In this document: positions 8,675 through 34,210 of the stretch, in pieces
Layout of the letters: each line of letters opens with the position of its first letter
Position numbering within the stretch: position 1 is the stretch's first letter
Virus record (IMG/VR): IMGVR_UViG_3300005077_000066
Coordinates: 1 to 34,210 of that record
Reading direction: 5' to 3' (one strand)
DNA length: 34,210 bases
DNA from: a virus
Taxonomy: Duplodnaviria; Caudoviricetes
The notes under the pieces: generated by a model
Seen by the model: the letters and a program-made list of their open reading frames with translations, nothing else
What the model was told of the DNA's origin: nothing
The model's database searches: none
Made by a program: the position numbers and the translations under genes

Positions 8675-8741
8675 CTTTTACAAGGTCAACGACCCTTAAA
8701 TGACGGTCGTTGCCGAAACCCATACCAAAGGACGGTGTACC

Positions 8742-9758
8742 ATGAACGAAAAAATCGTTATCGACGAAAGCGGCAAGCGTGTCGAAAATTTGCCGCAAGC
8801 TCAAACCAGCGCCCCGCCTATGAAAGCCGACGATGTCGTCTTTACGCCAGAGCAAATCGCGCTTATCAAAAAGCAAATTGCAAAAGACGCCTCGGACGAC
8901 GAGCTTTCAATTTTCCTTTATCAATGTAAAAGGACAAAGCTCGACCCTTTCAATCGGCAAATTTATGCAATCAAGCGCAAGGGGCAAATGTCAGTACAAA
9001 CTTCAATCGACGGCTTTCGCCTGATTGCCGAACGCTCTGGGAAATATGCGGGTCAAGGCGATGTCCTCTTTTGTGGCGACGACGGCAAATGGGTCGATGT
9101 CTGGCTTTCAAATAAGCCGCCAGCGGCCGCCAAAGCGACCGTTTACCGCAAGGATTTCGCCCAGCCCTTGACGGCCATTGCGAAATATGAATCATACAAG
9201 GTCGCCCATTATGACGAAAAATCAAAAACAATGGAATTGACCCCGCTCTGGCAAAAAATGCCCGAGCTTATGCTTTCAAAATGCGCCGAGGCGCTCGCGC
9301 TTCGCAAGGCGTTTCCTCAAGAATTGTCCGGCCTGTATACGCCCGACGAAATGGGGCAAACCGACAACGACGAAAAGACCCCGGCCAATACGCCGCCAGC
9401 ATCAAGGCGCAAGGAAATTAAAAAAGAGGCCCCGGCGCCTGAACGAAAGGCCGCCGACCGCTCGGACATGGCAACAATTGATAATTTGCATTTTCAATGC
9501 GACGTCTGCGGCGACAAGTTAACTTACAAGCCGGACGGGAAAAACGGCCCGACGTACTATTGCCGGAATTTTAAAGACAAAGAGGCGGGCGAGCATACGG
9601 TCTACTCCGGGGCAAAGCCCATCTGGACAGCCTTTGACAAACAAAATAATCCAAAAATGGCCCCGCCGGACGACGAGCCAATCGACGTCACTTATGAGGA
9701 CATCCCGGACGCATGGGAACCACTAACCGACGACGAAAAGGCCAATCATAATTTTTAA
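8742..9758 (+). CDS. bet: Phage recombination protein Bet/RecT (single-strand annealase) with C-terminal Zn ribbon
   Basis: [64 protein letters not shown]; SD AAAGGACGGT. Confidence 0.92.
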
Positions 9759-9818
9759 ACCAAGTCGCCGAGAATGACAAAAGCTCTAACGGCGACGTTA
9801 AACTATGGAGCGCATAAA

Positions 9819-10316
9819 ATGAAAAACATTGAATTAATTGACTTTAACACTGGCGAATTAATTAACTTGAACACCGACGATTTAAAAAGTTTAATGGCCG
9901 TGTATGACTCGGCCCGGGCGCGTCGGGACGAAGCTTATACGGTAATTGAAACCATCAAACTATTGCTTATCGAAAAGTCAAAAGAGTCTGCTGTCGACCC
10001 GACGAGATTGACCCGGCGCATTCAAGGCGACGGCGTCGTCGCGGTCTTGAGGGAAAACCCAAAAATTTCATGGGACGGGAGCCTCTTATCCCGGGCAAAG
10101 CGTATGTTAGGCAAAGAGCAGTTTGCAAAATATTTTCAGGAAAAAATCGAGTATAAGCCGCAATATCGCGAATTAAATAAGTTGCCTCATACGATCGCCC
10201 CTGATAAAAATACTCAAAAAGCATTTTCTCTTATGCTTGACGCCCGGAAATTGACCGGGCAAAGCTATTTTACTTTGGCTTGGGAAGTCCCAAAAGGCGA
10301 GCGATCTTTTAAATAA
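9819..10316 (+). CDS. Hypothetical protein co-transcribed with bet
   Basis: 165 aa; GGAG upstream of ATG 9819. Confidence 0.7.
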   Translation: MKNIELIDFNTGELINLNTDDLKSLMAVYDSARARRDEAYTVIETIKLLLIEKSKESAVDPTRLTRRIQGDGVVAVLRENPKISWDGSLLSRAKRMLGKEQFAKYFQEKIEYKPQYRELNKLPHTIAPDKNTQKAFSLMLDARKLTGQSYFTLAWEVPKGERSFK

Positions 10317-10808: not shown

Positions 10809-10935
10809 TATTGCCAGCGCAAGGGGCATTAGCGTAAGGCCGTAAACCGACCGCTTGACTAGTCGATGTCCCGGCAATACAAAGAGGCTGGCCGTACCGT
10901 GTAAATCTTTGATTTGCCGGGCGGCTGGCCTTTTT
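10809..10935 (+). ncRNA. Structured intergenic RNA ending in a long terminator hairpin
   Basis: Nested stems UAUUGCC/GGCAAUA, GGGGCAUU/GAUGUCCC, AGCG/CGCU; then AGGCUGGCCG/CGGCUGGCCU with inner GUAAAUC/GAUUUGC and a U tract. Confidence 0.5.
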
Positions 10936-11233
10936 ATTTGTCCGGCTCGGTTTTGTCCAGTAAGTTTTGAAAATTACAGCATTTGACAAGCTCATTGTGC
11001 CGGGCCGGGTATAAGCCTATCATTTCCTCGGTGTCGGCGGGCAAGTCCGAATTGCAATCAAGGGCGTTCCCCTTAACACTACAACAAAGAATTTTTTTGT
11101 TCCCGTTAACGTCTTGCGAGCGCAAAAAAAGATAAGTCGCTTTACTTGTCGGCCTGATTATCGTTTTCGTTTTCCCGGCGCAAGCGCTCGCGCTCATCGA
11201 TAACCCTATCACTAGCATTAAGGTAATCGACAT
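10934..11233 (-). CDS. Putative outer-membrane spanin (Rz1-like lipoprotein)
   Basis: Hydrophobic leader with lipobox-like ASA|C; Cys-rich; overlaps the 3' end of the i-spanin candidate; last gene of the lysis cassette. Confidence 0.55.
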   Translation of the reverse strand: MSITLMLVIGLSMSASACAGKTKTIIRPTSKATYLFLRSQDVNGNKKILCCSVKGNALDCNSDLPADTEEMIGLYPARHNELVKCCNFQNLLDKTEPDK

Positions 11234-11435
11234 ATTTTTTATTTGATAAAGAGTCGTCAATTTCGCCCTCGAATTTGTCTTGCAATTCATTGATTTTTTT
11301 CGACCTCGGCTTAAACGGCCATTGCTTTTTGTGATTCAAATATAAAGTCAAAAGGGCGGCAATGATTGACAAGGCCGCCCCGACGATTGTTTTCCATCCG
11401 CCTATTTGTTGGAATATATCGAGAATTGCGTCCAC
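11142..11435 (-). CDS. Putative inner-membrane spanin (Rz-like)
   Basis: N-terminal TM helix plus charged helical C-terminus; GTG start. Confidence 0.55.
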   Translation of the reverse strand: MDAILDIFQQIGGWKTIVGAALSIIAALLTLYLNHKKQWPFKPRSKKINELQDKFEGEIDDSLSNKKYVDYLNASDRVIDERERLRRENENDNQADK

Positions 11436-11756
11436 TTAGAAAAATGACTTTATTGCCTTTACAAGCGCATAGGCCGCATCGATGCAAGCCTCGACTTTCG
11501 CCTCGGCCTCGTCTTGCGGCAAATCAAACTTGGCCATAAAGTCCGTGATAAGATTTTTCACGTCGTCCTCTGTCGCGGCCTTTAACTCGTCGTCGATTTT
11601 TGTTATGCCGCTAATAAGCGCCGGAACGGTCGTTAATGCGGTCATGAATTTCGGGAAGTCCGTCCAAGTGATTTTTCCATCGTCGGCAAGCGATGCTCCA
11701 ACTCCGTTTCCGATCTCGGCCAGCGTGATAATTAAGTCCCTCGTTTCGGGCATCAT
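11436..11756 (-). CDS. Hypothetical lysis-cassette protein
   Basis: 106 aa helical protein between endolysin and spanins; SD AAGGGGG. Confidence 0.7.
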   Translation of the reverse strand: MMPETRDLIITLAEIGNGVGASLADDGKITWTDFPKFMTALTTVPALISGITKIDDELKAATEDDVKNLITDFMAKFDLPQDEAEAKVEACIDAAYALVKAIKSFF

Positions 11757-11796
11757 AAAAACCCCCTTTTTAATTTAAAGTTTTAAAAAAAATATA

Positions 11797-12267
11797 TTAC
11801 TGCTCCCGATTAATCCAGTCTTTATGCTTAAAAGGGCTCGAGTACCCGACGACATCAGAACGGTAACGATAAGGCCGCAAATTAACATAAGCGTCATATT
11901 TGACCGCATCTGCAATTGTCTTGACGTGTTTGCCGCCGCCGTTCGCCCCTAAGAATTGCCAATCGTTGTAAAGCAATCCTATATGAGATATTGCGTTGAT
12001 GTTTTTCCCGAAAAACACAAAGCCGCCCCGCTCCGGGCGCATCGTCCGGGGAAATTCCCAATATATGCCTTGCGCCGTCATGTCTTTTTTTTCTTTGGCC
12101 CATGCCGGGAATAAGCATCGGCAATATTCGACGACGACGCCAGAGCAATCGACGCCGCCATATTGCATAATTACTTTTGACCCGTCCGGGGCTGTTTCGA
12201 TTTTGGTTTCAATGACCGGATTGTCCCCGGCATATAAATAAGGCAAGCCGCCAAAAACTACAAGCAT
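11797..12267 (-). CDS. NlpC/P60 peptidoglycan endopeptidase (endolysin); true start probably upstream
   Basis: GLPYLYAGD, GVDCSG (catalytic Cys), VFFG, SHIGL (catalytic His). Confidence 0.85.
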   Translation of the reverse strand: MLVVFGGLPYLYAGDNPVIETKIETAPDGSKVIMQYGGVDCSGVVVEYCRCLFPAWAKEKKDMTAQGIYWEFPRTMRPERGGFVFFGKNINAISHIGLLYNDWQFLGANGGGKHVKTIADAVKYDAYVNLRPYRYRSDVVGYSSPFKHKDWINREQ

Positions 12268-12358
12268 ATATTGGAGCGCGACTTCCCGGGGATTTTCCCG
12301 GTAATTTATAATTTTGTCCCCTATTTTTTCCGCGATTTGGTTTAAAATAATAAAGTCC

Positions 12359-12772
12359 TTAAATAAAGGTTTTCAATTTTTCCCACAAAAACTTGATTAT
12401 TTCCCACGCAATGACGGCCCCGCCAGCCGCGCCGCTACCGACGACCGCGCTTCGCTTCGTCGATATTTGCTTAATCCGGCCGTCAAGGTCTTGATCTTTA
12501 ATCGACAATTGCTTGTCGACCCCGTTGATTTTGCTGTTAAGGGTAATATTAACGTCGTTGATTTTGGAAACAATATCGTTTTGCGACCTTATGAGCGACT
12601 TTACCGACTCATTGACAAACTTAAGCTCCGTTCGCGTTTCGGCCCGGCAAGACAAATGCGCGTCGCTTATGAATTTTTGTTGCTCTTTAAGCTCGTTTAA
12701 TATTCTCGCAAAATCGTCCATACCTTTTCTGCGTTCGCTTGAATTGTCGCCGTTTCCGTTGTTGTTTGGCAT
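12359..12772 (-). CDS. Coiled-coil protein with C-terminal hydrophobic segment (holin/antiholin candidate)
   Basis: ERRK N-terminus, heptad repeats, C-terminal GAAGGAVIAW segment; directly before the endolysin. Confidence 0.55.
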   Translation of the reverse strand: MPNNNGNGDNSSERRKGMDDFARILNELKEQQKFISDAHLSCRAETRTELKFVNESVKSLIRSQNDIVSKINDVNITLNSKINGVDKQLSIKDQDLDGRIKQISTKRSAVVGSGAAGGAVIAWEIIKFLWEKLKTFI

Positions 12773-12778
12773 CGCAGT

Positions 12779-13114
12779 TTATTCCACTATCGACCCTTGA
12801 ATCAATCCATTACTGATTATATACGTTTCGACCTGAGAAATAATACTGTTTACATTGGCAAGCGCAGTAAAATTAACGTTTGCCTTTGGACTATATGTTC
12901 CATCGGCATTTCTGGAATTGACCAGAACAGCCTCGCCTGTATCAGCCCTCTTGAATGAAACATAAACATTCCCGTCTGGATTGATTTGTACGCCACGCAC
13001 CAAAATATTTTGATAACTTGACGTTACCGGATTATTAAGCTGTATTTCGCAGTAAACCTGATAAGCCGTGACCAAAAAAGCCGCGAATAAAAATCCAAGT
13101 ATAAATTTTTTCAT
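12779..13114 (-). CDS. Signal-peptide-bearing hypothetical protein
   Basis: MKKFILGFLFAAFLVTAYQVYC leader; SD AGGGGG. Confidence 0.75.
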   Translation of the reverse strand: MKKFILGFLFAAFLVTAYQVYCEIQLNNPVTSSYQNILVRGVQINPDGNVYVSFKRADTGEAVLVNSRNADGTYSPKANVNFTALANVNSIISQVETYIISNGLIQGSIVE

Positions 13115-13133
13115 TTTTCCCCCTATACTAAAA

Positions 13134-14690
13134 TTATCTTGTAAACCAATTAGAACCGTTACTATAAACGGTTATATGTCCGTAATTTGTGCTTATTGTA
13201 GCGGTCGCGGCTCCGTCTATTGTTTCCGCGCCTTGCGTTGCAATTGTTATGTTTGCGCTGCTCGCCCCGCCGGACTCGTCTTTGACGACCAATTCGCGGT
13301 TTAAAACGCAATCGGCTGTCTGCAATGTTACCGTATCGCCGCCGCCTGTAATCGCTGTTATTGCGATAAGATAGTCCATTGCCTCGGTCGTCGTTCCGCC
13401 CGCCCCGACCGCGCGCCTTTTAATTTTCTGCGCTCCATTTGAATTAATTCCGCCGACGACTTCCAAATAATTTTGGGCGTTGTCGGTAACGACTTCTTTT
13501 AGTGAGAGGGTATCTATTAACCCCGCCCAAGCCGTAGAAACCGCCTTTATTGTAAAATCCGTCGGCGACGCGTTTGTCTTAAATACTATTTGCTGCCCTC
13601 GATAGTATTCGCTCCTAAGCATATAAACGCGGTCTGCAACATCCGTGTCAATATACAGGTAATCACCCGCCCCGCCCGGAGCAACGCCAGTCGAGTAAAC
13701 AAGCAAATAGTAAGTGTTTGCCTTTAATGCGATTGCCAAATCCGCTTGCGCTTGCGTAATGCTTCCGGCCCCTGTACTATGAGCGTAATCCGCGCTATTA
13801 TTTGCAAGCGTGAAGTCCCCGGCGTCGCTCCAAGACGTACCGCTCGTTAACGCTCCATTTGTCAAACATTCCGACCCCAACGACTGGTATAAATGCAATC
13901 TTGTGCTATTAAAGCCATCTATATAAAAACGTTTATTCGTTTGGGTATAAGACGGATTCGGCTCGGTTGTAGTTCTCGCCATATAATCGACATTGTAATA
14001 GCCCCCGATTTCTTTGGCGTTCCCGCCCCAATAAATAAAAGACGGGACTTTGAAATAGTCATTACCAACTAGTTCTATTCCGTTAAGCCCGTAAATTCTA
14101 CCTTGATTACCCATTGACATCCTTCCAGCATTTGGGATGTCGACATTGCCCCATAATTTTATTGACGCTGCCTTTGCGGTCAATTCCGTTCCCGCCGCAT
14201 TTGATTGCAAATAAACAGCCGTTCCCCCATCAAAATAAACAGTGCCGCCATCGGTTGCAGCGTTATTAAGTTGAAGATAATCAAAGTTGTATAAACTTGC
14301 ATTTCCCCCGCCGACACCGTAAATATCCCGATTATTCATAAGCATATCACTACCCATTACAGTAGTGGTAAATCCGCTGCTTATGGTCAAGCTAGTTCCA
14401 TCGGCTGACGACTTTATATATTTGGCTGAATTGCCATCAAAATAAATTGCCCCGCCGTCTGTCGCTCCATTGTTCAGAACTAAGTATTGCCATGATAAAG
14501 GCGTTGAATACTCGCCTAAGTGATAAGTGTCTGTTACGGACGGCAAAAGATTTGAGGCAATAGCAAGCGGGTCAATGCCGCCGCCTATGCTATAAGTCCC
14601 CAAGTTTGTTTTGCGCGGGTCATTCAAACCTATGGCATGGGCGTTGACTGTAAAGAGTAACGCAAATAAGAATATAAAAAGTTTTTTCAT
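13134..14690 (-). CDS. Tail fibre/receptor-binding-like protein with Sec signal peptide
   Basis: MKKLFIFLFALLFTVNAHA| leader; G/T/N-rich; internal repeat; C-terminal VTL..VVKDESG..ETIDG..SNGSNWF domain typical of fibre/baseplate proteins. Confidence 0.7.
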   Translation of the reverse strand: MKKLFIFLFALLFTVNAHAIGLNDPRKTNLGTYSIGGGIDPLAIASNLLPSVTDTYHLGEYSTPLSWQYLVLNNGATDGGAIYFDGNSAKYIKSSADGTSLTISSGFTTTVMGSDMLMNNRDIYGVGGGNASLYNFDYLQLNNAATDGGTVYFDGGTAVYLQSNAAGTELTAKAASIKLWGNVDIPNAGRMSMGNQGRIYGLNGIELVGNDYFKVPSFIYWGGNAKEIGGYYNVDYMARTTTEPNPSYTQTNKRFYIDGFNSTRLHLYQSLGSECLTNGALTSGTSWSDAGDFTLANNSADYAHSTGAGSITQAQADLAIALKANTYYLLVYSTGVAPGGAGDYLYIDTDVADRVYMLRSEYYRGQQIVFKTNASPTDFTIKAVSTAWAGLIDTLSLKEVVTDNAQNYLEVVGGINSNGAQKIKRRAVGAGGTTTEAMDYLIAITAITGGGDTVTLQTADCVLNRELVVKDESGGASSANITIATQGAETIDGAATATISTNYGHITVYSNGSNWFTR

Positions 14691-14700
14691 TTATTCCCCC

Positions 14701-15171
14701 TTATTGTACCTTGCCGCTTAACGTGACATAAGCCTCGTCGATCTGCCCGGCTGTCGCTCCGACCGTCCCGGCCTTGACTTGTACTTGTGCATAATTCGCG
14801 CCCATTAATCCAAACTCAAAAACAAAGCGCCCGTCGGCATCGACGTTATATTCCAAATACTCGCCCTCGAATTTTACGTCGCTTGACCCGGGACTCAATA
14901 TCACCGACTGGTATTCGTTCCCGGCGCTTTCAAGCCCATATAAGACCCGAAATTGTACGTTATTTGTGCTATTAATATCGACATTTACCCATAAGGCCAT
15001 GCGCTCAAAATTTCTCACTTCGATTTGCGACCCCAAGTCGACCCATCCCGACGTCACCGCTTGCGGGGCCGATGTCGCGACAAGCTCGGTTTTTTCATTG
15101 TAAACCCTTATAGCGCAAGACGATAAAACGAGCGCCCCGGCCAAAAGCAAAGTAAAAAGTATTTTTTTCAT
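14701..15171 (-). CDS. Predicted lipoprotein, beta-rich
   Basis: MKKILFTLLLAGALVLSS|C lipobox. Confidence 0.75.
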   Translation of the reverse strand: MKKILFTLLLAGALVLSSCAIRVYNEKTELVATSAPQAVTSGWVDLGSQIEVRNFERMALWVNVDINSTNNVQFRVLYGLESAGNEYQSVILSPGSSDVKFEGEYLEYNVDADGRFVFEFGLMGANYAQVQVKAGTVGATAGQIDEAYVTLSGKVQ

Positions 15172-15179
15172 TTTTCCCC

Positions 15180-15524
15180 CTAGTGCAAAAATAGCAAATA
15201 ATTTTTTCTCAATATTTCCTTTGTCAATGACTCGGTATATCCAGAGCCTTTTGTAAATGCTTCAAATTCCCATTTAAAACGCCAGTAATTCCATCCCAAA
15301 GGCAAGACCAAAAGATATAAAAAGAACCATGCGAGCCAGCCGAATATATAAAGCGTGTACCACTTGACCCATTTGCTTTGTTGCTCAAAGTGAATAAGTT
15401 CATGACGCCGGGTATCAGCCGACAATGCATTGACATAAAAAATAAACGGGTAAACCGTTACCGCTCCGAACCCAAAAAACCATTTTATTTTTATAAATTT
15501 TGCTTCCATTGTTAAGGCAGCCAT
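15180..15524 (-). CDS. Small hydrophobic HExxH protein (putative membrane metallopeptidase)
   Basis: RRHELIHFEQ, aromatic/hydrophobic segment, FEFEA-like WEFEA third-ligand candidate. Confidence 0.65.
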   Translation of the reverse strand: MAALTMEAKFIKIKWFFGFGAVTVYPFIFYVNALSADTRRHELIHFEQQSKWVKWYTLYIFGWLAWFFLYLLVLPLGWNYWRFKWEFEAFTKGSGYTESLTKEILRKNYLLFLH

Positions 15525-16294
15525 TTGTCAATATAACCCCTTGACGCCCAAACTACATTTGCAGCCGCATTTTCCGTTTTGACGCAAACATCGCCATCGG
15601 ATTGCGGCGCGACATAAATCATGCCCCTGGTATAAGTTCTGGTTTGGTAATCGTCGGTCGTGCAATCATGCGAAGCATAAGCCCAACGAGCATCGTCGTT
15701 TGTATATAAAGTTCCGATTACCATTGCCGCCAATGCGCTTGGGATGTCGGCCGGGTCGATGTCCGTATAAGACGTCGAGCTTGAAGTTTGATTTGCGGCC
15801 TTTCTAATCATCATGATATTGCCTATTTGCGAGAAATAAATAATATTGGACGAACTGTCGTTTTTGATCGTTCCCAAATATAAATTTTGGTCGAAAACAT
15901 CGCCGTTTAAATCCGTGTCGTAAAGCCCCGTTGCCAGAGTAGCCGAGCCGACGATGCCAAGCGAGCTAGACGCGTAATACATATAAATCGAGTAATAAGT
16001 GTCGCTTGTTTCCGAGCCTGTATCCAGCCCGTAATCATAAGCACCGCCAGAGCCGTCAAATTTCCAATCGGCGTCGCTTGCCAAGTTGATAAGGTTTCCG
16101 TGTTCGACGTAGTAGTTCCCGGCTTTAATTGTAACCGTCCCGGCGTCCTTATAGACTAAATGCAAGGGCGGCATAATTTGAAACTTATAGCTGTTAATTT
16201 CTAACCCGTTTACGTTTAAATTGCCGCGCCGAACGTCGCATGCCCCGATAAAAATTAAGCTCAAAAATAAAAATATCGAAAAAAGTTTTTTCAT
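15512..16294 (-). CDS. Predicted lipoprotein with tail-fibre-like domain
   Basis: MKKLFSIFLFLSLIFIGA|C lipobox; TVTIKAG..GLDTGSETSDTYYSIY motif resembling fibre modules. Confidence 0.7.
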   Translation of the reverse strand: MKKLFSIFLFLSLIFIGACDVRRGNLNVNGLEINSYKFQIMPPLHLVYKDAGTVTIKAGNYYVEHGNLINLASDADWKFDGSGGAYDYGLDTGSETSDTYYSIYMYYASSSLGIVGSATLATGLYDTDLNGDVFDQNLYLGTIKNDSSSNIIYFSQIGNIMMIRKAANQTSSSTSYTDIDPADIPSALAAMVIGTLYTNDDARWAYASHDCTTDDYQTRTYTRGMIYVAPQSDGDVCVKTENAAANVVWASRGYIDKWLP

Positions 16295-16303
16295 TTTTCC
16301 CCC

Positions 16304-16963
16304 TTAAATTTCGACTATGCGCAAATCGTTGTCTGTCCCTAAGTCCCTGTAATGATATGTCATTGTTCCGGCTTGATTTCTTATTATCCCGTCAAATATA
16401 TTGTAATTCGCATTTACATAAAGTCCGTTTGTCAACGTACCGCCCGCGCCGTTTTGCTGTATCCTTATCCCTCTGGCTTGCGTTGCATAATTGACGATTG
16501 TTAAAGCCGACGTAACCGTCCCGGTCGTATTGGTCAAGTAAAAAGTCAAATCGTTAATTCGGCAATTGTACCCTGAAACATAAAGCATGTGTATTGCCGC
16601 GCCCGTCGTTTGCAAAATACTGTACCCATTACCGATAATTATTCCGTCATTTATTGAGAAAGTTTGTTGTGTTGTGACTTCAATATCCGATGTCAAAATT
16701 ATTTTGGATGCCCCGCCAGCGACCGCCGCATTTATGTCGGCGTAATCGTCATAAGTCCCGCTTCCGACCGTTGCGAAGTCCTTAAAAACTGAATTGCCAA
16801 GCCAGCGCGTCCATAAACCGACGTTATAAAACAGCCAGTTTAATTCGTCCCCCGGCGGATATTCTTGATAAACGAACCCTGTCCCCTTTTTCCCGGACGA
16901 CGGCTCTGTTCTATAAGACGCCGAGCCGTTGGCCCAATCAACATAACTTGTCGGTTTTCCCAT
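16304..16963 (-). CDS. Short tail fibre / fibre adaptor with baseplate anchor
   Basis: N-terminal W..EPS..K..GF..EYPP..LNWLF anchor motif, then a beta-helix-like segment; follows the baseplate wedge genes. Confidence 0.75.
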   Translation of the reverse strand: MGKPTSYVDWANGSASYRTEPSSGKKGTGFVYQEYPPGDELNWLFYNVGLWTRWLGNSVFKDFATVGSGTYDDYADINAAVAGGASKIILTSDIEVTTQQTFSINDGIIIGNGYSILQTTGAAIHMLYVSGYNCRINDLTFYLTNTTGTVTSALTIVNYATQARGIRIQQNGAGGTLTNGLYVNANYNIFDGIIRNQAGTMTYHYRDLGTDNDLRIVEI

Positions 16964-16983
16964 TGTTAACCCTTTCGCAGAAT

Positions 16984-17013
16984 ATTATAATTAGTTTTAA
17001 ATTTTTATATCAA
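16984..17013 (-). promoter_or_regulatory. Putative late promoter TTGATA-18-TATAAT for the fibre module
   Basis: Shares CTTGATATAAAAATT with the portal promoter. Confidence 0.65.
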
Positions 17014-17016
17014 GCT

Positions 17017-17613
17017 TTATATAGTCCATCCTATCCGGCCCTGATCTAACGACCCCGTCCATGAAAGCCCCTTGCCTAACGTTGTCGGGTCTGGCTGGCC
17101 AGTCCAGCCTAAAATAAACGGATTCGGCTCGTAATATTTGACGCCATTAACAAGTATCGAGGCCCCGACCGAGTCTTGCAAAATCGGCTCAATGTACGGC
17201 TCGACATCGGCGTCAATCGCGCTCGAAACCGTGACCCGTATTTCGGCCGGGAATAATTCAATAATCCATCCGTCGGCCGCGCCCCTCAATATATTGAAAA
17301 TTTCGTATACCTCGGGCATTGTCCCGTCGCTAAAGTTCTGACCTATTTTGGCCTTTAAAAATTGTCGATATACGGCGTCGGTCTGACCTGATTCCCGGGC
17401 AATGCCAACGACGACCCCTATTAAGTCCAATACTTCGCCCTCGACCGTGTCTATACTTAACACCGATAAAAGATCGTAAATTGCGTCCTCGGCCGCCTGA
17501 AACTCCGTTGTAAATTGCTTTAATAAGTTTTGAAAATTAGTTTTGCCCTTGTATTGTTGCAAAAGCCGGGCAAGGGCCGCCGCTTCGTGATCTGTTATTT
17601 GAGTAATCGCCAT
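17017..17613 (-). CDS. Baseplate wedge protein (DUF2612-like)
   Basis: ARLLQQYK..IDTVEGEVLDLIGVVVGIAR..DAVYRQFLKAKI. Confidence 0.85.
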   Translation of the reverse strand: MAITQITDHEAAALARLLQQYKGKTNFQNLLKQFTTEFQAAEDAIYDLLSVLSIDTVEGEVLDLIGVVVGIARESGQTDAVYRQFLKAKIGQNFSDGTMPEVYEIFNILRGAADGWIIELFPAEIRVTVSSAIDADVEPYIEPILQDSVGASILVNGVKYYEPNPFILGWTGQPDPTTLGKGLSWTGSLDQGRIGWTI

Positions 17614-17623
17614 TTTAATTACC

Positions 17624-18790
17624 TCATGAGATATTGACCGTCATATCGACATCGGCAAAGGTCGCAAGCTCGTCGGCGTCGACCGTAATCGGGGCGTCTG
17701 AAACGGGCGGTGTCGTCGGATGCTCCGAAACTAATACCTCAATATCCCGGATTCCGTCGACCGCGTCCATTATGGCCGGAATGATCTCGGCGGCTGGCAA
17801 AACATCGTCGCCCATATTAAGCCCGGCTTCATAAGCATTAATTGCCGCCTTTACTTGTGCGCTTGTTACGGTATAACCGCTTTCTTGCGTAATGTTTACG
17901 GTAACATACATTCTTAATTCCGTCGGCCTTGAAAAGTAAATAGTATGCGAGTCGCCTTGACTATCGGTAGCCGACCCCGAGCTTGAACCGAATGTTTCAA
18001 TACCGGCTGGCTTTGCGTCCCATATCGCGTCGACGATGTCCTGATCTGCTCCGCCCTTGACTACCATTTCAAACGATTTTGCCGGGCGCCCGGCCCCGTC
18101 GACCGTCGAGCCTGTATTTTCATATCCGGCGACCGCATCGACGTTGCTTATGTCAAGTAAAGCCGTCCTTATGGCCTCAAGCGTTCCTTTTTTGCTTTGT
18201 TGTAATTGTGTATTGCGCCTCGCCCTCAATTCGGCGTCCGTTTCCTCGGCGCTTCCGAGCGTTGCATCGGCGGAATTCGTAACCGACGTCAATCCCGAAA
18301 CGGGCGTTACAATTACCGTCAATGTCCCGGCTGGCGCATTTATCGCCCCGGTCGCTGTCGCCGTACATGTCACGTCGACCGTACCGCCGCCGCCGATTGT
18401 CGCGTTTTCGTCCGTTTCAAAAACGGCGTCCTCATCGCCGCTTACTTGAATTTGAGTCCCGGCCGGAACGACCGTCGTTGAAACCCCGGTCAAAGTGACC
18501 GTCGCCGTCGAATAAGACGCCGCCCGCCTTGCTATCCCGACCAAAGCGCAAGCCTTGTCTAACGAAACGCCCTCGGCCGTTTGCGGGTCGACCGCCTGAT
18601 ATACCGCTTGACCCAATTCCCACAAAAGCGAAATGCGCTCCGAAAGTATACCCACTAATTGACCGAGCGGCGTTTGAGCCTGTAAGTTAATCGAGGCCCC
18701 GAAAGCCGTTTTAAAAGATGTTTCCAGATCGCTTTTAATTGTCGCAAGGTCTTTAATCTCAAAGCCGTTTGAAGTTAAACCGTATGCCAT
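17624..18790 (-). CDS. Baseplate J-like protein
   Basis: MAYGLTSNGF, AEGVSLD, EETDAELRAR, AKPAGI motifs. Confidence 0.92.
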   Translation of the reverse strand: MAYGLTSNGFEIKDLATIKSDLETSFKTAFGASINLQAQTPLGQLVGILSERISLLWELGQAVYQAVDPQTAEGVSLDKACALVGIARRAASYSTATVTLTGVSTTVVPAGTQIQVSGDEDAVFETDENATIGGGGTVDVTCTATATGAINAPAGTLTVIVTPVSGLTSVTNSADATLGSAEETDAELRARRNTQLQQSKKGTLEAIRTALLDISNVDAVAGYENTGSTVDGAGRPAKSFEMVVKGGADQDIVDAIWDAKPAGIETFGSSSGSATDSQGDSHTIYFSRPTELRMYVTVNITQESGYTVTSAQVKAAINAYEAGLNMGDDVLPAAEIIPAIMDAVDGIRDIEVLVSEHPTTPPVSDAPITVDADELATFADVDMTVNIS

Positions 18791-26120: not shown

Positions 26121-26325
26121 TTTTGTTTAATTCCGTAAAGTTATACCCGATATTTTTATAATCGGTAGCTATTATTAAAAGGTCTTTGGTTTCCCTGACC
26201 TCAAAGTCAAATTTGCATAACCCGGCCAAAACGCAAGAGCAAAAAAAATTTAAGACGTCAAACTCCGGGTCGTATTTAATCTCAATAGGATACGCCGTCG
26301 GCCTTTGCAAAATATTTATTTTCAT
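26101..26325 (-). CDS. Hypothetical protein inserted in the neck module
   Basis: ATGA overlap at 26322-26325; 74 aa. Confidence 0.55.
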   Translation of the reverse strand: MKINILQRPTAYPIEIKYDPEFDVLNFFCSCVLAGLCKFDFEVRETKDLLIIATDYKNIGYNFTELNKNAAQVQ

Positions 26326-26954
26326 TGATTTTGCCTTTCGATTATTAAAGCCCGGTAATACCCGCGCCATAATTCGACTTTGTTGACTTCAAATTCGGTG
26401 TCCTCATATTCGATTGAATCGTTTGTCGTAATTTCGGTTTTTGTCCATAAGTTTAAGTGACGCCTTTCCTTGTCATACTCTGGCAATTGCTCAATTTCCT
26501 TGCCAGTCAAGGGCTGCACGTTGGCGCTTATTTCGGTTTCGGTCAAAACCCCTTGACGATAATTCCCGAGATTGTCATATCCCCGGCCTGTTATTTCAAC
26601 GGTGACAGTTACATCTACAAGCAATATTTTTAAGCCGGACGTCGCGACTTCAAATTTCATTTTGTCGGTGTTCCCGTCAACGCCTTGAAAAGTGATTTCA
26701 AATCCGTCGCTGTAATCGCCGCCGACGTCAATATCGTTTATCCCTGACAAAAGCAAAAGGGCCGCCTTTACCGCCGCCGCATCTGCGTTATAATCAAGCC
26801 ATGTAGTCGTTTCATGATCGTAACCAATACGCCAAGTCCCGACCGTCGGAACGGCCGAGAAAGTAATCGTTTGTTGCATGTCTTGAGTCAAAAGCTTCGC
26901 CGCCTGTACCCTCATCAATTCGCAATCGCCTATTTTCCCAAATTCAAAGCTCAT
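26322..26954 (-). CDS. Head closure (stopper) protein with inserted domain
   Basis: C-terminal ANVQPLTGKEIEQLPE..DSIEYEDTEFEV; N-terminal insertion paralogous to the sheath insertion. Confidence 0.75.
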   Translation of the reverse strand: MSFEFGKIGDCELMRVQAAKLLTQDMQQTITFSAVPTVGTWRIGYDHETTTWLDYNADAAAVKAALLLLSGINDIDVGGDYSDGFEITFQGVDGNTDKMKFEVATSGLKILLVDVTVTVEITGRGYDNLGNYRQGVLTETEISANVQPLTGKEIEQLPEYDKERRHLNLWTKTEITTNDSIEYEDTEFEVNKVELWRGYYRALIIERQNQ

Positions 26955-34060: not shown

Positions 34061-34090
34061 ATAATAGCATTGCATTAATTTTTATATCAA
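34061..34090 (-). promoter_or_regulatory. Putative late promoter TTGATA-18-TATTAT for the portal operon
   Basis: Extended -10 (TGC); member of the repeated promoter family. Confidence 0.65.
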
Positions 34091-34210
34091 GATTTTTTCC
34101 ACTTTGAGCTTTTGGCAAAGCTTTCGATTTTAGCGTCGATATTGAACCCGCCCGTCATTTCCTCAAGGCCGTAAACCAGAACATCGAATTGGTCGTCGTT
34201 CGGGGCGTTC
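34087..34210 (-). CDS. terL: Terminase large subunit C-terminus (enters from right edge)
   Basis: NAPNDDQFDVLVYGLEEM...SSKWKKS*; carries the terminal DD..D nuclease motif. Confidence 0.9.
   Translation of the reverse strand, partial: NAPNDDQFDVLVYGLEEMTGGFNIDAKIESFAKSSKWKKS

Follow-up and report, generated by a model that had tools for sequence, protein, structure and literature searches.

A fibre-slot gene cassette with export-type leaders in an uncultured myovirus genome and its possible loading onto particles at lysis

The window, i.e., the whole stretch of 34,210 nucleotides that was analysed, is the near-complete 34-kb genome of a small uncultured contractile-tailed phage (a myovirus), in which the terminase gene spans both ends. 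Neither a tyrosine integrase nor a resolvase was found in this near-complete genome, and profile scans of its open reading frames gave no match to a repressor. After the baseplate J and DUF2612 genes and before the lysis genes, a position corresponding to the fibre slot of Pam3/E217-type phages, lies a cassette in which a short leaderless fibre gene is followed by five genes, four of them starting with a leader. The following features are found, all on the minus strand:

17017-18790, minus strand: baseplate J and DUF2612 wedge genes (profile matches), which define the fibre slot
16984-17013, minus strand: promoter-like site upstream of the fibre cassette (TTGATA, 18 nt, TATAAT; consensus match only)
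16304-16963, minus strand: leaderless short fibre of 219 aa with an N-terminal baseplate anchor (residues 1 to about 58) and then a probable short beta-helix (by eye)
15512-16294, minus strand: predicted lipoprotein of 260 aa (leader 16241-16294, Cys19) with a tether of about 20 residues and a head resembling the second domain of Mtd ('GLDTG')
15198-15227, minus strand: second promoter-like site of the 18-nt-spacer type, upstream of the 156-aa gene (consensus match)
15180-15524, minus strand: gene for a small hydrophobic protein with an HExxH...E motif, located between the lipoprotein genes (start probably at 15509; low GC of 0.37)
14701-15171, minus strand: predicted lipoprotein of 156 aa (leader 15118-15171, Cys19) with a single jelly-roll domain
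13134-14690, minus strand: fibre-like mosaic of 518 aa (SPase I leader 14634-14690) with a repeat (residues 42-189), a middle module (263-436) and a C-terminal T4 gp9/XD1-like domain (412-517)
12779-13114, minus strand: protein of 111 aa (SPase I leader 13049-13114), with no family assignment
10934-12772, minus strand: lysis block 3' of the cassette, with a holin-like protein of 137 aa, an NlpC/P60 hydrolase, a 106-aa protein and two overlapping spanin-like genes, 11142-11435 coding for a single transmembrane stretch and 10934-11290 for a lipobox (assigned by eye and from established knowledge)

The first 13 bases of the promoter-like site at 16984-17013 are those of the site upstream of the portal gene. 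A promoter-like motif is common to the cassette and the portal, scaffold, sheath and lysis genes, with 12 sites compared to 0.88 in shuffled sequences, a comparison affected by the post hoc choice of the motif after the sites had been seen. In the lysis block, the holin-like protein gives a weak holin match (E 0.04), and the overlapped spanin-like pair points to a probable two-membrane host.

Leaders were called by a rule asking for a basic n-region, an uncharged h-region of nine residues with a mean Kyte-Doolittle value of at least 2.0 and then a lipobox or an AxA-type site. The preliminary description had assigned very similar leaders to four of the five genes following the anchored fibre and quoted them, two with a lipobox and one of the SPase I type. 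All five frames were found at their coordinates on the minus strand with the N-termini as quoted, and the rule calls exactly the same four among 34 late-region genes, with lipoprotein leaders in 15512-16294 and 14701-15171 and SPase I leaders in 13134-14690 and 12779-13114; from the portal to the anchored fibre none of 24 genes is called. Used as a null, internal positions fire 35 times, all within three tail genes (26322-26954, the tape measure and a Dit-like gene), and never in the four leader proteins. That the gene at 10934-11290, a probable o-spanin lipoprotein, escaped the rule shows the latter to be conservative. A GGGGG Shine-Dalgarno sequence precedes all four genes as described before, its spacing being 4 nt in three of them and 5 nt in 13134-14690 and therefore not the same throughout. 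Genome-wide, GGGGG-N3-8-ATG occurs at 12 sites on the minus strand and at none on the plus strand, and such sites also stand before the genes for capsid decoration and for the major capsid protein, so that the motif marks strongly translated genes and is not specific for the cassette. Translation from internal starts past the leaders had been named as a point against them; each leader start has a strong Shine-Dalgarno sequence, and no in-frame start with a Shine-Dalgarno sequence lies within 60 codons downstream of any of the four. Conservation of the signals, which was also in question, is seen in both close homologues found (P0002 and P0162), where the leaders are kept and drift faster than the mature parts: the 156-aa protein and P0002 share 6 of 18 leader and 118 of 138 mature residues, including the lipobox cysteine, and the 111-aa protein and P0162 share 8 of 22 and 55 of 89, with the cleavage register kept in both pairs. 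By these sequence criteria the four are confirmed as real export-type leaders.

No second leaderless fibre gene was found in the genome besides that of the 219-aa protein, which is also the only one of the five with an N-terminal virion anchor, none being recognisable on the four leader proteins. Its anchor is 40% identical to a 64-aa open reading frame of a related phage (L009) which matches PHROG tail-fibre N-termini, and a homologue in L046, the single sequence from which the anchor profile was built, covers residues 1-195 (E 4e-18). The 219-aa protein may function unaided as a short spike, and no docking domain was recognised in it. The HExxH protein matches phrog_15610 'protease' (E 2e-6), and neither a homologue nor the motif was found in 8761 open reading frames of the fetched loci, nor a homologue in phage records. 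A role of this gene as sheddase for the lipoproteins was retained as a candidate option; a counterpart was found in no other cassette.

A profile made of 115 viral GLDTG domains finds the head of the 260-aa lipoprotein at E 1.5e-15, with residues 40-217 covered. Position +2 of this lipoprotein is Asp, which in enterobacteria signals retention in the inner membrane. Elsewhere these domains are found C-terminally on anchored tail fibres (with PHROG tail-fibre matches for L103, L116 and L162) and, in eight loci, as stand-alone proteins 3' of a capsid-like gene. Most relatives of the cassette proteins are leaderless and cleavage would bring the cassette proteins to the same N-terminal register: the GLDTG motif lies at residue 55-72 in the stand-alone members and at residue 71 in the mature 260-aa protein. 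Inspection by eye of L096, L099, L101, L121 and L160 shows a start resembling a fibre anchor behind the leader. The leader-bearing GLDTG relatives gave no direct phmmer match to the 260-aa protein, for which neither a word-index search (one match, itself, among 1445 candidates) nor tblastn of phage records returned a homologue. As an explanation for export, disulfide formation is not supported: cysteines are not enriched (1, 0, 2, 4 and 1 in leader-bearing GLDTG domains, mean 2.0 in 69 leaderless ones).

A comparison was made with Mtd of Bordetella phage BPP-1. Of the relatives of the 260-aa head tested, 12 of 13 match PF21916, the second domain of Mtd, two of them over the cut-off, whereas the 260-aa protein itself has no direct Pfam match; in the Atlas, unnamed phage tail proteins score higher against it (TM 0.70-0.72) than the Mtd-family clusters (TM 0.44-0.49). 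It furthermore differs in its N-terminal lipobox. Mtd carries a C-terminal C-type lectin variable domain together with a diversity-generating retroelement, whereas neither a C-type lectin/FGE-sulfatase domain nor a reverse transcriptase was found among the open reading frames scanned here. Modelling of the mature domains as trimers had been proposed, and the 260-aa head is predicted as a homotrimer with an ipSAE of 0.87 (best control 0.00, pLDDT at least 82, at least 61% of contacts common to the runs). This ipSAE passes a mark which 20 of 30 solved homo-pairs attain, as does 1 of 23 monomers; these numbers apply to the present protein only roughly. Mtd-like trimers are known, and the trimer prediction may reflect likeness to them. 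Single-sequence AlphaFold gives the mature part a pLDDT of 32.

The jelly-roll family of the 156-aa protein is viral, usually leaderless and located among head or fibre genes. Six of eight homologues in the database and all eight in loci are leaderless, and in L008 two copies flank the fibre gene 5' of the lysis genes. Within the family two of nine members have a lipobox, one has an SPase I-type leader (by eye) and six are leaderless, which shows that the lipid is not a constant feature. The best structural matches of the model are the C-terminal domain of PBSX XepA (Z 10.3, rmsd 3.0, 108 residues aligned) and SPbeta YomS (Z 10.0, rmsd 3.7, 112 aligned), followed within 1 Z by PGP3, TNF-like lectins and BclA. 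The likeness to XepA and YomS consists in the fold and in a gene near lysis genes; the differences are the single domain with a lipobox, an identity of 9-12% and the ties with TNF-like lectin folds.

For the 518-aa mosaic, 137 of 149 matches to its modules are leaderless by the leader rule. Compared to P0061, the leader and 23 further residues stand in place of an anchor-like start, and in L024 an anchored fibre ends with the same C-terminal domain (E 9e-8). The fibre/baseplate-type modules noticed earlier by motif in this protein and in 15512-16294 are thereby borne out as fibre-type in both by domain matches. The gp9-like domain gives a weak match to XD1 (E 0.21), a domain that does not bind trimeric partners (PMC8825819); it was therefore dropped as a candidate docking site. 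The position of the 111-aa gene suggests a fibre chaperone or tip; homology to the small post-fibre protein of L008 was rejected (hhalign probability 0.8%). Sequence searches of the PDB gave nothing at E<0.2.

In gene order and in the wedge-anchor N-terminus of the 219-aa protein the window resembles Pam3/E217/PB1-type myoviruses. It differs in what follows: the next gene is leaderless in 54 of 57 related myoviruses, whereas in the window leaders occur on four of the five genes that follow. A leader occurs in the same slot in three of the 57, a count that contains none of the genes of L024 (537 aa), L082 (235 aa) and L074 (182 aa), whose leader calls were dropped as enzyme-like or membrane proteins by eye. 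L009 has a bare 64-aa anchor followed by a leader-bearing fibre of 673 aa, which need not be its only fibre since two further leaderless fibre-like genes lie 3' of its lysis block. In L042 the leader is on a protein matching phrog_1645 'virion structural protein' (E 4e-73), and in L011 and L046 leaderless fibres occupy the slot. Two scans of genome contigs with baseplate J as query gave no match, and no loci were returned when the 156-aa, 219-aa or 114-aa protein was used alone as query.

The layout recurs in a cultured phage, Cellulophaga phage phi10:1 (NC_021802.1), in which a leaderless 116-aa protein (gp090) is followed by a run of leader-bearing fibre/depolymerase genes and then by membrane and lysis genes (gp090-gp095). 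Its gp091-gp094 carry leaders and are annotated as virion proteins with the GenBank note 'experimental MS/MS proteomics'. The phage differs in its non-contractile-type tail genes and its Bacteroidota host, and its leaders are of the SPase I type whereas half of the cassette has a lipobox. The GenBank record makes no remark on the leaders, and MS/MS of phage preparations can take in envelope carry-over, which is relevant to this annotation.

The textbook view is that assembly of tailed-phage particles is completed in the cytoplasm, and their structural proteins are normally leaderless. The mature parts of the cassette proteins are, as judged from sequence, modules of virion-surface type (the 260-aa trimer head, the 156-aa jelly roll and the 518-aa fibre mosaic), and we see an even chance that the four leader proteins are exported virion parts which are added to the particles at lysis. 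The shared promoter-like motif suggests that this cassette of virion-surface domains would be expressed late, and the products would pass through the host Sec system and fold in the periplasm. The 518- and 111-aa proteins would be freed by SPase I, and the two lipoproteins (260 and 156 aa) would receive their lipid and be staged on a membrane. Spanin-type lysis would then bring the particles into contact with the periplasm, and docking of the mature proteins might take place through the N-termini exposed by processing; the lipoproteins would either retain their lipid or be clipped from it. The leaderless 219-aa fibre would be the likely foothold on the baseplate. We regard the mixing at lysis and the N-terminal docking as the weakest steps, above all for the lipoproteins. 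Several points speak against this reading: an N-terminal lipid, expected for two of the four, blocks N-terminal docking unless it is clipped, none of the four has a recognisable fibre anchor, the 219-aa protein may suffice as a spike, the gp9-like match to XD1 is weak, the leader-bearing fibre of L009 need not be its only one, the MS/MS annotation in phi10:1 may include envelope carry-over, cysteines are not enriched, and the leader-bearing GLDTG relatives lack a direct phmmer match. Candidate reasons for export are glycosylation by the host and sparing the cytoplasm the folding of a sugar-binding fibre, both put forward as ideas.

Of the two readings offered in the preliminary description, export followed by addition to virions is the better supported. 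It is favoured over a cell-surface function because of the late promoter class, the absence of an integrase, the phi10:1 precedent and the leaders ahead of fibre-anchor-like starts in relatives. Exclusion of superinfecting phages from a lysogen is disfavoured, whereas masking at the time of lysis fits the two lipoproteins. In the literature searched (titles and starts of abstracts, most subscription journals lying outside the coverage) no description of a phage fibre or virion protein with a signal peptide was found; in this respect the system is undescribed as proposed, although the arrangement recurs in unrelated phages, one of them cultured. The broader idea comes slightly short of even in our estimate: in many unrelated tailed phages a particle with a short leaderless anchor might be built in the cytoplasm while the recognition parts are exported via the host's Sec and lipoprotein pathways, staged in the envelope, part of them on a lipid, and loaded at lysis, with signal peptides as a switchable module attached to otherwise ordinary genes for fibres and decoration proteins. 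If export and loading at lysis hold, phage infectivity would depend on host secretion, periplasmic host enzymes could modify fibres, and pipelines that drop proteins with signal peptides would miss host-range genes of many environmental phages. As phi10:1 is cultured and has the same layout, the question is testable now.

As the main rival, in our judgement less likely, the exported receptor-binding domains, two lipid-anchored and two soluble, might act as late decoys that cover host receptors and never join the virion, which would use the 219-aa spike; progeny would then not be lost on debris, or the dying cell would not be re-infected. The two lipoboxes, one of them kept in P0002, are better explained in this way, lipid, short tether and trimeric head form an adhesin-like design, the lack of a fibre anchor on all four would be expected, and the late promoter class suits masking at lysis equally well. 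A precedent for a phage lipoprotein is Llp of T5, which is small, made shortly after infection and binds FhuA from the periplasm, blocking this receptor (10.64898/2026.03.26.714494). Two of the four cassette genes share with it the lipoprotein leader and a possible masking role, whereas the cassette is late-slot and built from fibre domains and Llp is early and not fibre-derived. Against decoys also stand the inconstant lipid of the jelly-roll family, the annotation of the leader-bearing phi10:1 proteins as virion proteins and the fibre-anchor-like starts behind leaders in the five relatives, which would be needless for a decoy. If decoys were nevertheless correct, phages would turn domains of their own fibres into lipid-anchored decoys, of which the literature searched likewise holds no description.

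It is improbable that the exported proteins, the jelly roll above all, are lysis accessories which, in the manner of PBSX XepA, help to disrupt or remodel the envelope. The structural ranking of XepA and YomS and the location of the cassette directly 5' of the lysis block are in line with this, whereas PGP3, TNF-like lectins and BclA tie with these matches, a separate lysis block is present and the 260- and 518-aa proteins are fibre-type. Moreover, cytotoxicity of XepA needs the two-domain dumbbell, and single-domain YomS was not cytotoxic (PMC6834076). We likewise give little credence to leaders that do not act in export, be it due to an internal translation start or as uncleaved hydrophobic N-termini on cytoplasmic fibres: most relatives are indeed leaderless, yet the strong Shine-Dalgarno sequences lie at the leader starts and not at internal ones, and the n/h/c architecture, the cleavage register and the lipobox cysteine in P0002 are kept despite sequence drift.

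Least probable of all are host-derived surface adhesins as lysogenic-conversion cargo, modelled on the MAT proteins of Bdellovibrio bacteriovorus, i.e., fibre-like bacterial surface adhesins which have fibre-type domains behind a signal peptide, a conserved domain, rich in beta structure and about 130 aa long, following the latter and an S74 chaperone in 13 of 21 (PMC10769870); the cassette differs from these in lying in a phage late operon and in giving no match to S74, it occupies the fibre slot with the Shine-Dalgarno and promoter-like motifs of virion genes in a genome with no integrase, resolvase or repressor match, and its relatives were found in viral contigs or phage-like loci, the unnamed database matches coming without context. 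In line with such cargo is the GC3 of the 111-aa (0.36) and 518-aa (0.45) genes, which is lower than the 0.48-0.58 of most structural genes.

The tail-fibre cassette of this uncultured phage is assembled from parts of known kinds; what is new about it are the export leaders, and this observation is real. The following features are concerned:

16304-16963, minus strand: 219-aa anchored fibre
15512-16294, minus strand: 260-aa protein, lipobox leader
15180-15524, minus strand: HExxH...E membrane protein of low GC, between the two lipoprotein genes
14701-15171, minus strand: 156-aa protein, lipobox leader
13134-14690, minus strand: 518-aa protein, SPase I-type leader
12779-13114, minus strand: 111-aa protein, SPase I-type leader

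The five ORFs behind the fibre and their N-termini are exactly as in the preliminary description, and our own leader rule (basic n-region, uncharged hydrophobic h-region of nine residues, then a lipobox or AxA-type site) flags four of the 34 late-region genes, precisely those for which leaders had been proposed; from the portal through the anchored fibre (24 genes) it flags nothing. The GGGGG Shine-Dalgarno sequence before the ATG is present as described; its supposedly equal spacing is 4 nt in three genes and 5 nt in one, and the site is not cassette-specific, as capsid genes have it too. Translation from internal starts had been named as a finding that would speak against the leaders, and no internal start with a Shine-Dalgarno sequence lies downstream of any of them. 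Both close homologues retain the leader, with 6/18 identical residues compared to 118/138 in the mature part for the 156-aa protein, and 8/22 compared to 55/89 for the 111-aa protein. A leader that is kept while its sequence drifts faster than the mature part is expected if selection acts on the export function and not on the sequence. In the literature searched, which was of limited coverage, no description of signal peptides on phage fibre or virion proteins was found. For the cultured phage phi10:1, gp091-gp094 have leaders under our rule and the GenBank note 'experimental MS/MS proteomics analysis', while gp095 has a leader and lacks this note, and gp090 (116 aa) is leaderless.

With TM 0.70-0.72, the Atlas model of the 260-aa protein is similar to unnamed phage tail proteins; its similarity to Mtd clusters is weaker (0.44-0.49). 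Scanning viral contigs for the GLDTG motif of its Mtd-second-domain-like head yielded 122 loci, and residues 40-217 match a profile built from 115 distinct motif-bearing domains (E 1.5e-15; best pairwise E 3e-13), a profile score that is partly by construction because the motif was picked from this very protein. PF21916 is matched by 12 of 13 tested relatives of the head, two of them over the cut-off. Such relatives are found at the end of anchored tail fibres (L103, L116, L162) and, as judged by eye, as stand-alone leaderless genes immediately downstream of a capsid-like gene (L105, L106, L113, L128, L149, L161, L166, L169), the latter probably being a head decoration or spike family. In these eight proteins the motif begins at residue 59-72 (55-72 including L127), compared to 71 in the mature 260-aa protein, and this shared register means that the leader was added onto a complete leaderless protein. 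Three copies of the 260-aa protein gave a trimer with an ipSAE of 0.87 (best control 0.00) and a pLDDT of at least 82, repeat runs having at least 61% of contacts in common; a pass was also obtained for 20 of 30 solved homo-pairs and for 1 of 23 monomers, counts that serve only as a rough guide here. The protein is predicted to fold as a homotrimer; resemblance to known trimers may account for the pass.

Among the 80 loci with full flanks, our rule finds a leader in 5 of 71 motif-bearing proteins, to which inspection by eye adds L099. By eye, an apparent fibre anchor follows the leader in L096, L099, L101, L121 and L160, and the leader-bearing genes of L096 and L121 have tail-type neighbours. 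Cysteines are not enriched in leader-bearing compared to leaderless GLDTG domains. Three leader-bearing proteins are encoded at 1665-7049 in L160, an unrelated phage: a GLDTG fibre of 802 aa, a 139-aa protein and a fibre-like protein of 841 aa. A single 156-kb contig (L100, L134-L137) holds at least eight leaderless GLDTG/Mtd-like genes in tandem, several of them trailed by a 73-aa gene that is nearly identical each time; it is in this array that the 260-aa head has its closest relatives.

The 518-aa protein is a mosaic matched by 4890 representatives (E<=0.001). Under our rule, leaders occur in 12 of its 149 best matches, self excluded, with 0/7 for the N-terminal and 5/18 for the middle module. 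P0061 has both the N-terminal repeats and the C-terminal domain, and begins with an anchor-like stretch in the place of the leader. The C-terminal domain matches phrog_20556 (E 9e-10), a gene annotated 'T4 gp9/gp10-like' and the last part of the anchored L024 fibre; in the PDB it has a weak match to the XD1 region of CBA120 TSP4 (E 0.21), which according to PMC8825819 does not serve to dock trimers. The 156-aa protein is modelled as a jelly roll (pLDDT 72) with XepA (Z 10.3; 108 residues aligned at rmsd 3.0) and YomS (Z 10.0; 112 residues at rmsd 3.7) as top structural matches; PGP3, TNF-like lectins and BclA tie with these, and uncharacterised viral proteins also resemble the model (best TM 0.70). 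The predicted fold reveals no function. Its eight database homologues comprise one with the lipobox, one with an SPase I-type leader and six leaderless proteins, and all eight homologues in the fetched loci are leaderless. They sit among head or fibre genes: L008 has two jelly-roll copies on either side of a 636-aa fibre-like gene upstream of the lysis genes, and in L004 the gene that follows encodes a leader-bearing fibre-like protein. The searches returned one homologue and no family for the 111-aa protein, and no homologue of the HExxH gene among 8761 ORFs of the fetched loci, other cassettes being without a counterpart.

The fibre slot behind the baseplate J gene and DUF2612 can accept leader-bearing or leaderless genes. 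Of 83 loci with a J gene, 57 were non-redundant and sufficiently long; the second gene after J has a leader in 0/57 and the third in 3/57 (L009, L012, L042). In L009, a 64-aa ORF that is an anchor alone (40% identity with the N-terminus of the 219-aa fibre; PHROG tail-fibre match) precedes leader-bearing 673- and 244-aa proteins, and two leaderless fibre-like genes lie farther along. In L042, one of the four leader-bearing genes encodes a virion structural protein of phrog_1645 (E 4e-73); the relative of this protein in phage SCTP-2 has no leader. The 219-aa protein has a homologue in L046, followed there by a leaderless 251-aa protein, and L011 has a 100-aa anchor and then leaderless fibres. 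The L042 genome has direct terminal repeats, and its four leader-bearing genes (12969-17913), located after the anchored fibre, have Thr/Pro-rich repeats that could be glycosylation sites. In L043 (1541-5171), DUF2612 is followed by three leaderless fibre genes of about 400 aa in a row, of which two or more begin with the baseplate anchor motif. Methyltransferase-like and glycosyltransferase-like genes, assigned by eye, come immediately after the fibre genes in the leaderless relatives L024 (7543-9695) and L084 (7335-9761), possibly for cytoplasmic fibre modification.

Promoter-like sites suggest that the cassette is co-expressed with virion genes:

17013, minus strand: TTGATA-18-TATAAT site upstream of the 219-aa gene, 13 bases identical to the pre-portal site
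34090, 31002, 25577, 17013, 15227, 12376, minus strand: sigma-70-like sites with 18-nt spacer upstream of late gene blocks

The 18-nt-spacer sites are a candidate late promoter. A looser motif occurs at 12 sites, 11 on the coding strand, compared to 0.88 in shuffles, a contrast inflated by its definition after the sites were seen; it precedes the portal, scaffold, sheath, fibre cassette, 156-aa and NlpC/P60 genes.

Beyond the leaders, domains, slot and trimer, which are observed or predicted, we infer export, staging and docking: the cassette proteins would be made late, exported via Sec and folded in the periplasm, and the mature proteins would be loaded onto particles when the cell lyses. 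This is the best reading, to which we give an even chance, and would be categorically new if shown. P22 tailspikes and T4 fibres can be added in vitro to finished particles, which makes late docking plausible. Against loading at lysis count the two lipoboxes among the four proteins, the fibre anchor found on none of them (0/4), the docking domain for which no candidate was found, and the 219-aa protein, which may be sufficient as a spike on its own. The main rival, late decoys that mask receptors, is possible though rather unlikely; T5 Llp is a loose analogue. Quite possibly the outcome is mixed, the virion carrying the SPase I proteins and the envelope the lipoproteins, which would partly credit both loading and decoys. 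A lysis accessory and non-functional leaders are both weak, improbable explanations, and host adhesin cargo is the least probable.

The window, 34,210 bases long, is an entire IMG/VR virus record. The phage itself is contractile-tailed, encoding a Mu-type portal, sheath, Pam3/E217-type baseplate, baseplate J and DUF2612. Further features of its genome are:

1-1383: large terminase, left part (phrog_38, E 3e-87)
34090-34210: large terminase, right part, where the right contig end opens with the remainder of the nuclease motif
8700-10316, plus strand: RecT/Bet gene and 165-aa partner, the only substantial genes on this strand
10934-11435: spanin-like overlapped pair (by eye), one TM stretch plus coiled coil and a Cys-rich lipoprotein in the other frame

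Both contig ends lie within the large terminase gene and about ten codons, counted by eye, are absent between them, so the genome is essentially complete; despite the IMG/VR class linear and a CheckV completeness of 61%, what the record holds is a circularly permuted genome with almost nothing missing. The search for a tyrosine integrase or resolvase was negative here (0/1), its controls being positive in 14/14 and 12/14 genomes, and since the window has no recognisable gene for an integrase, a resolvase or a repressor, the lifestyle is probably lytic. The overlapped spanin-like pair points to a host with two membranes.
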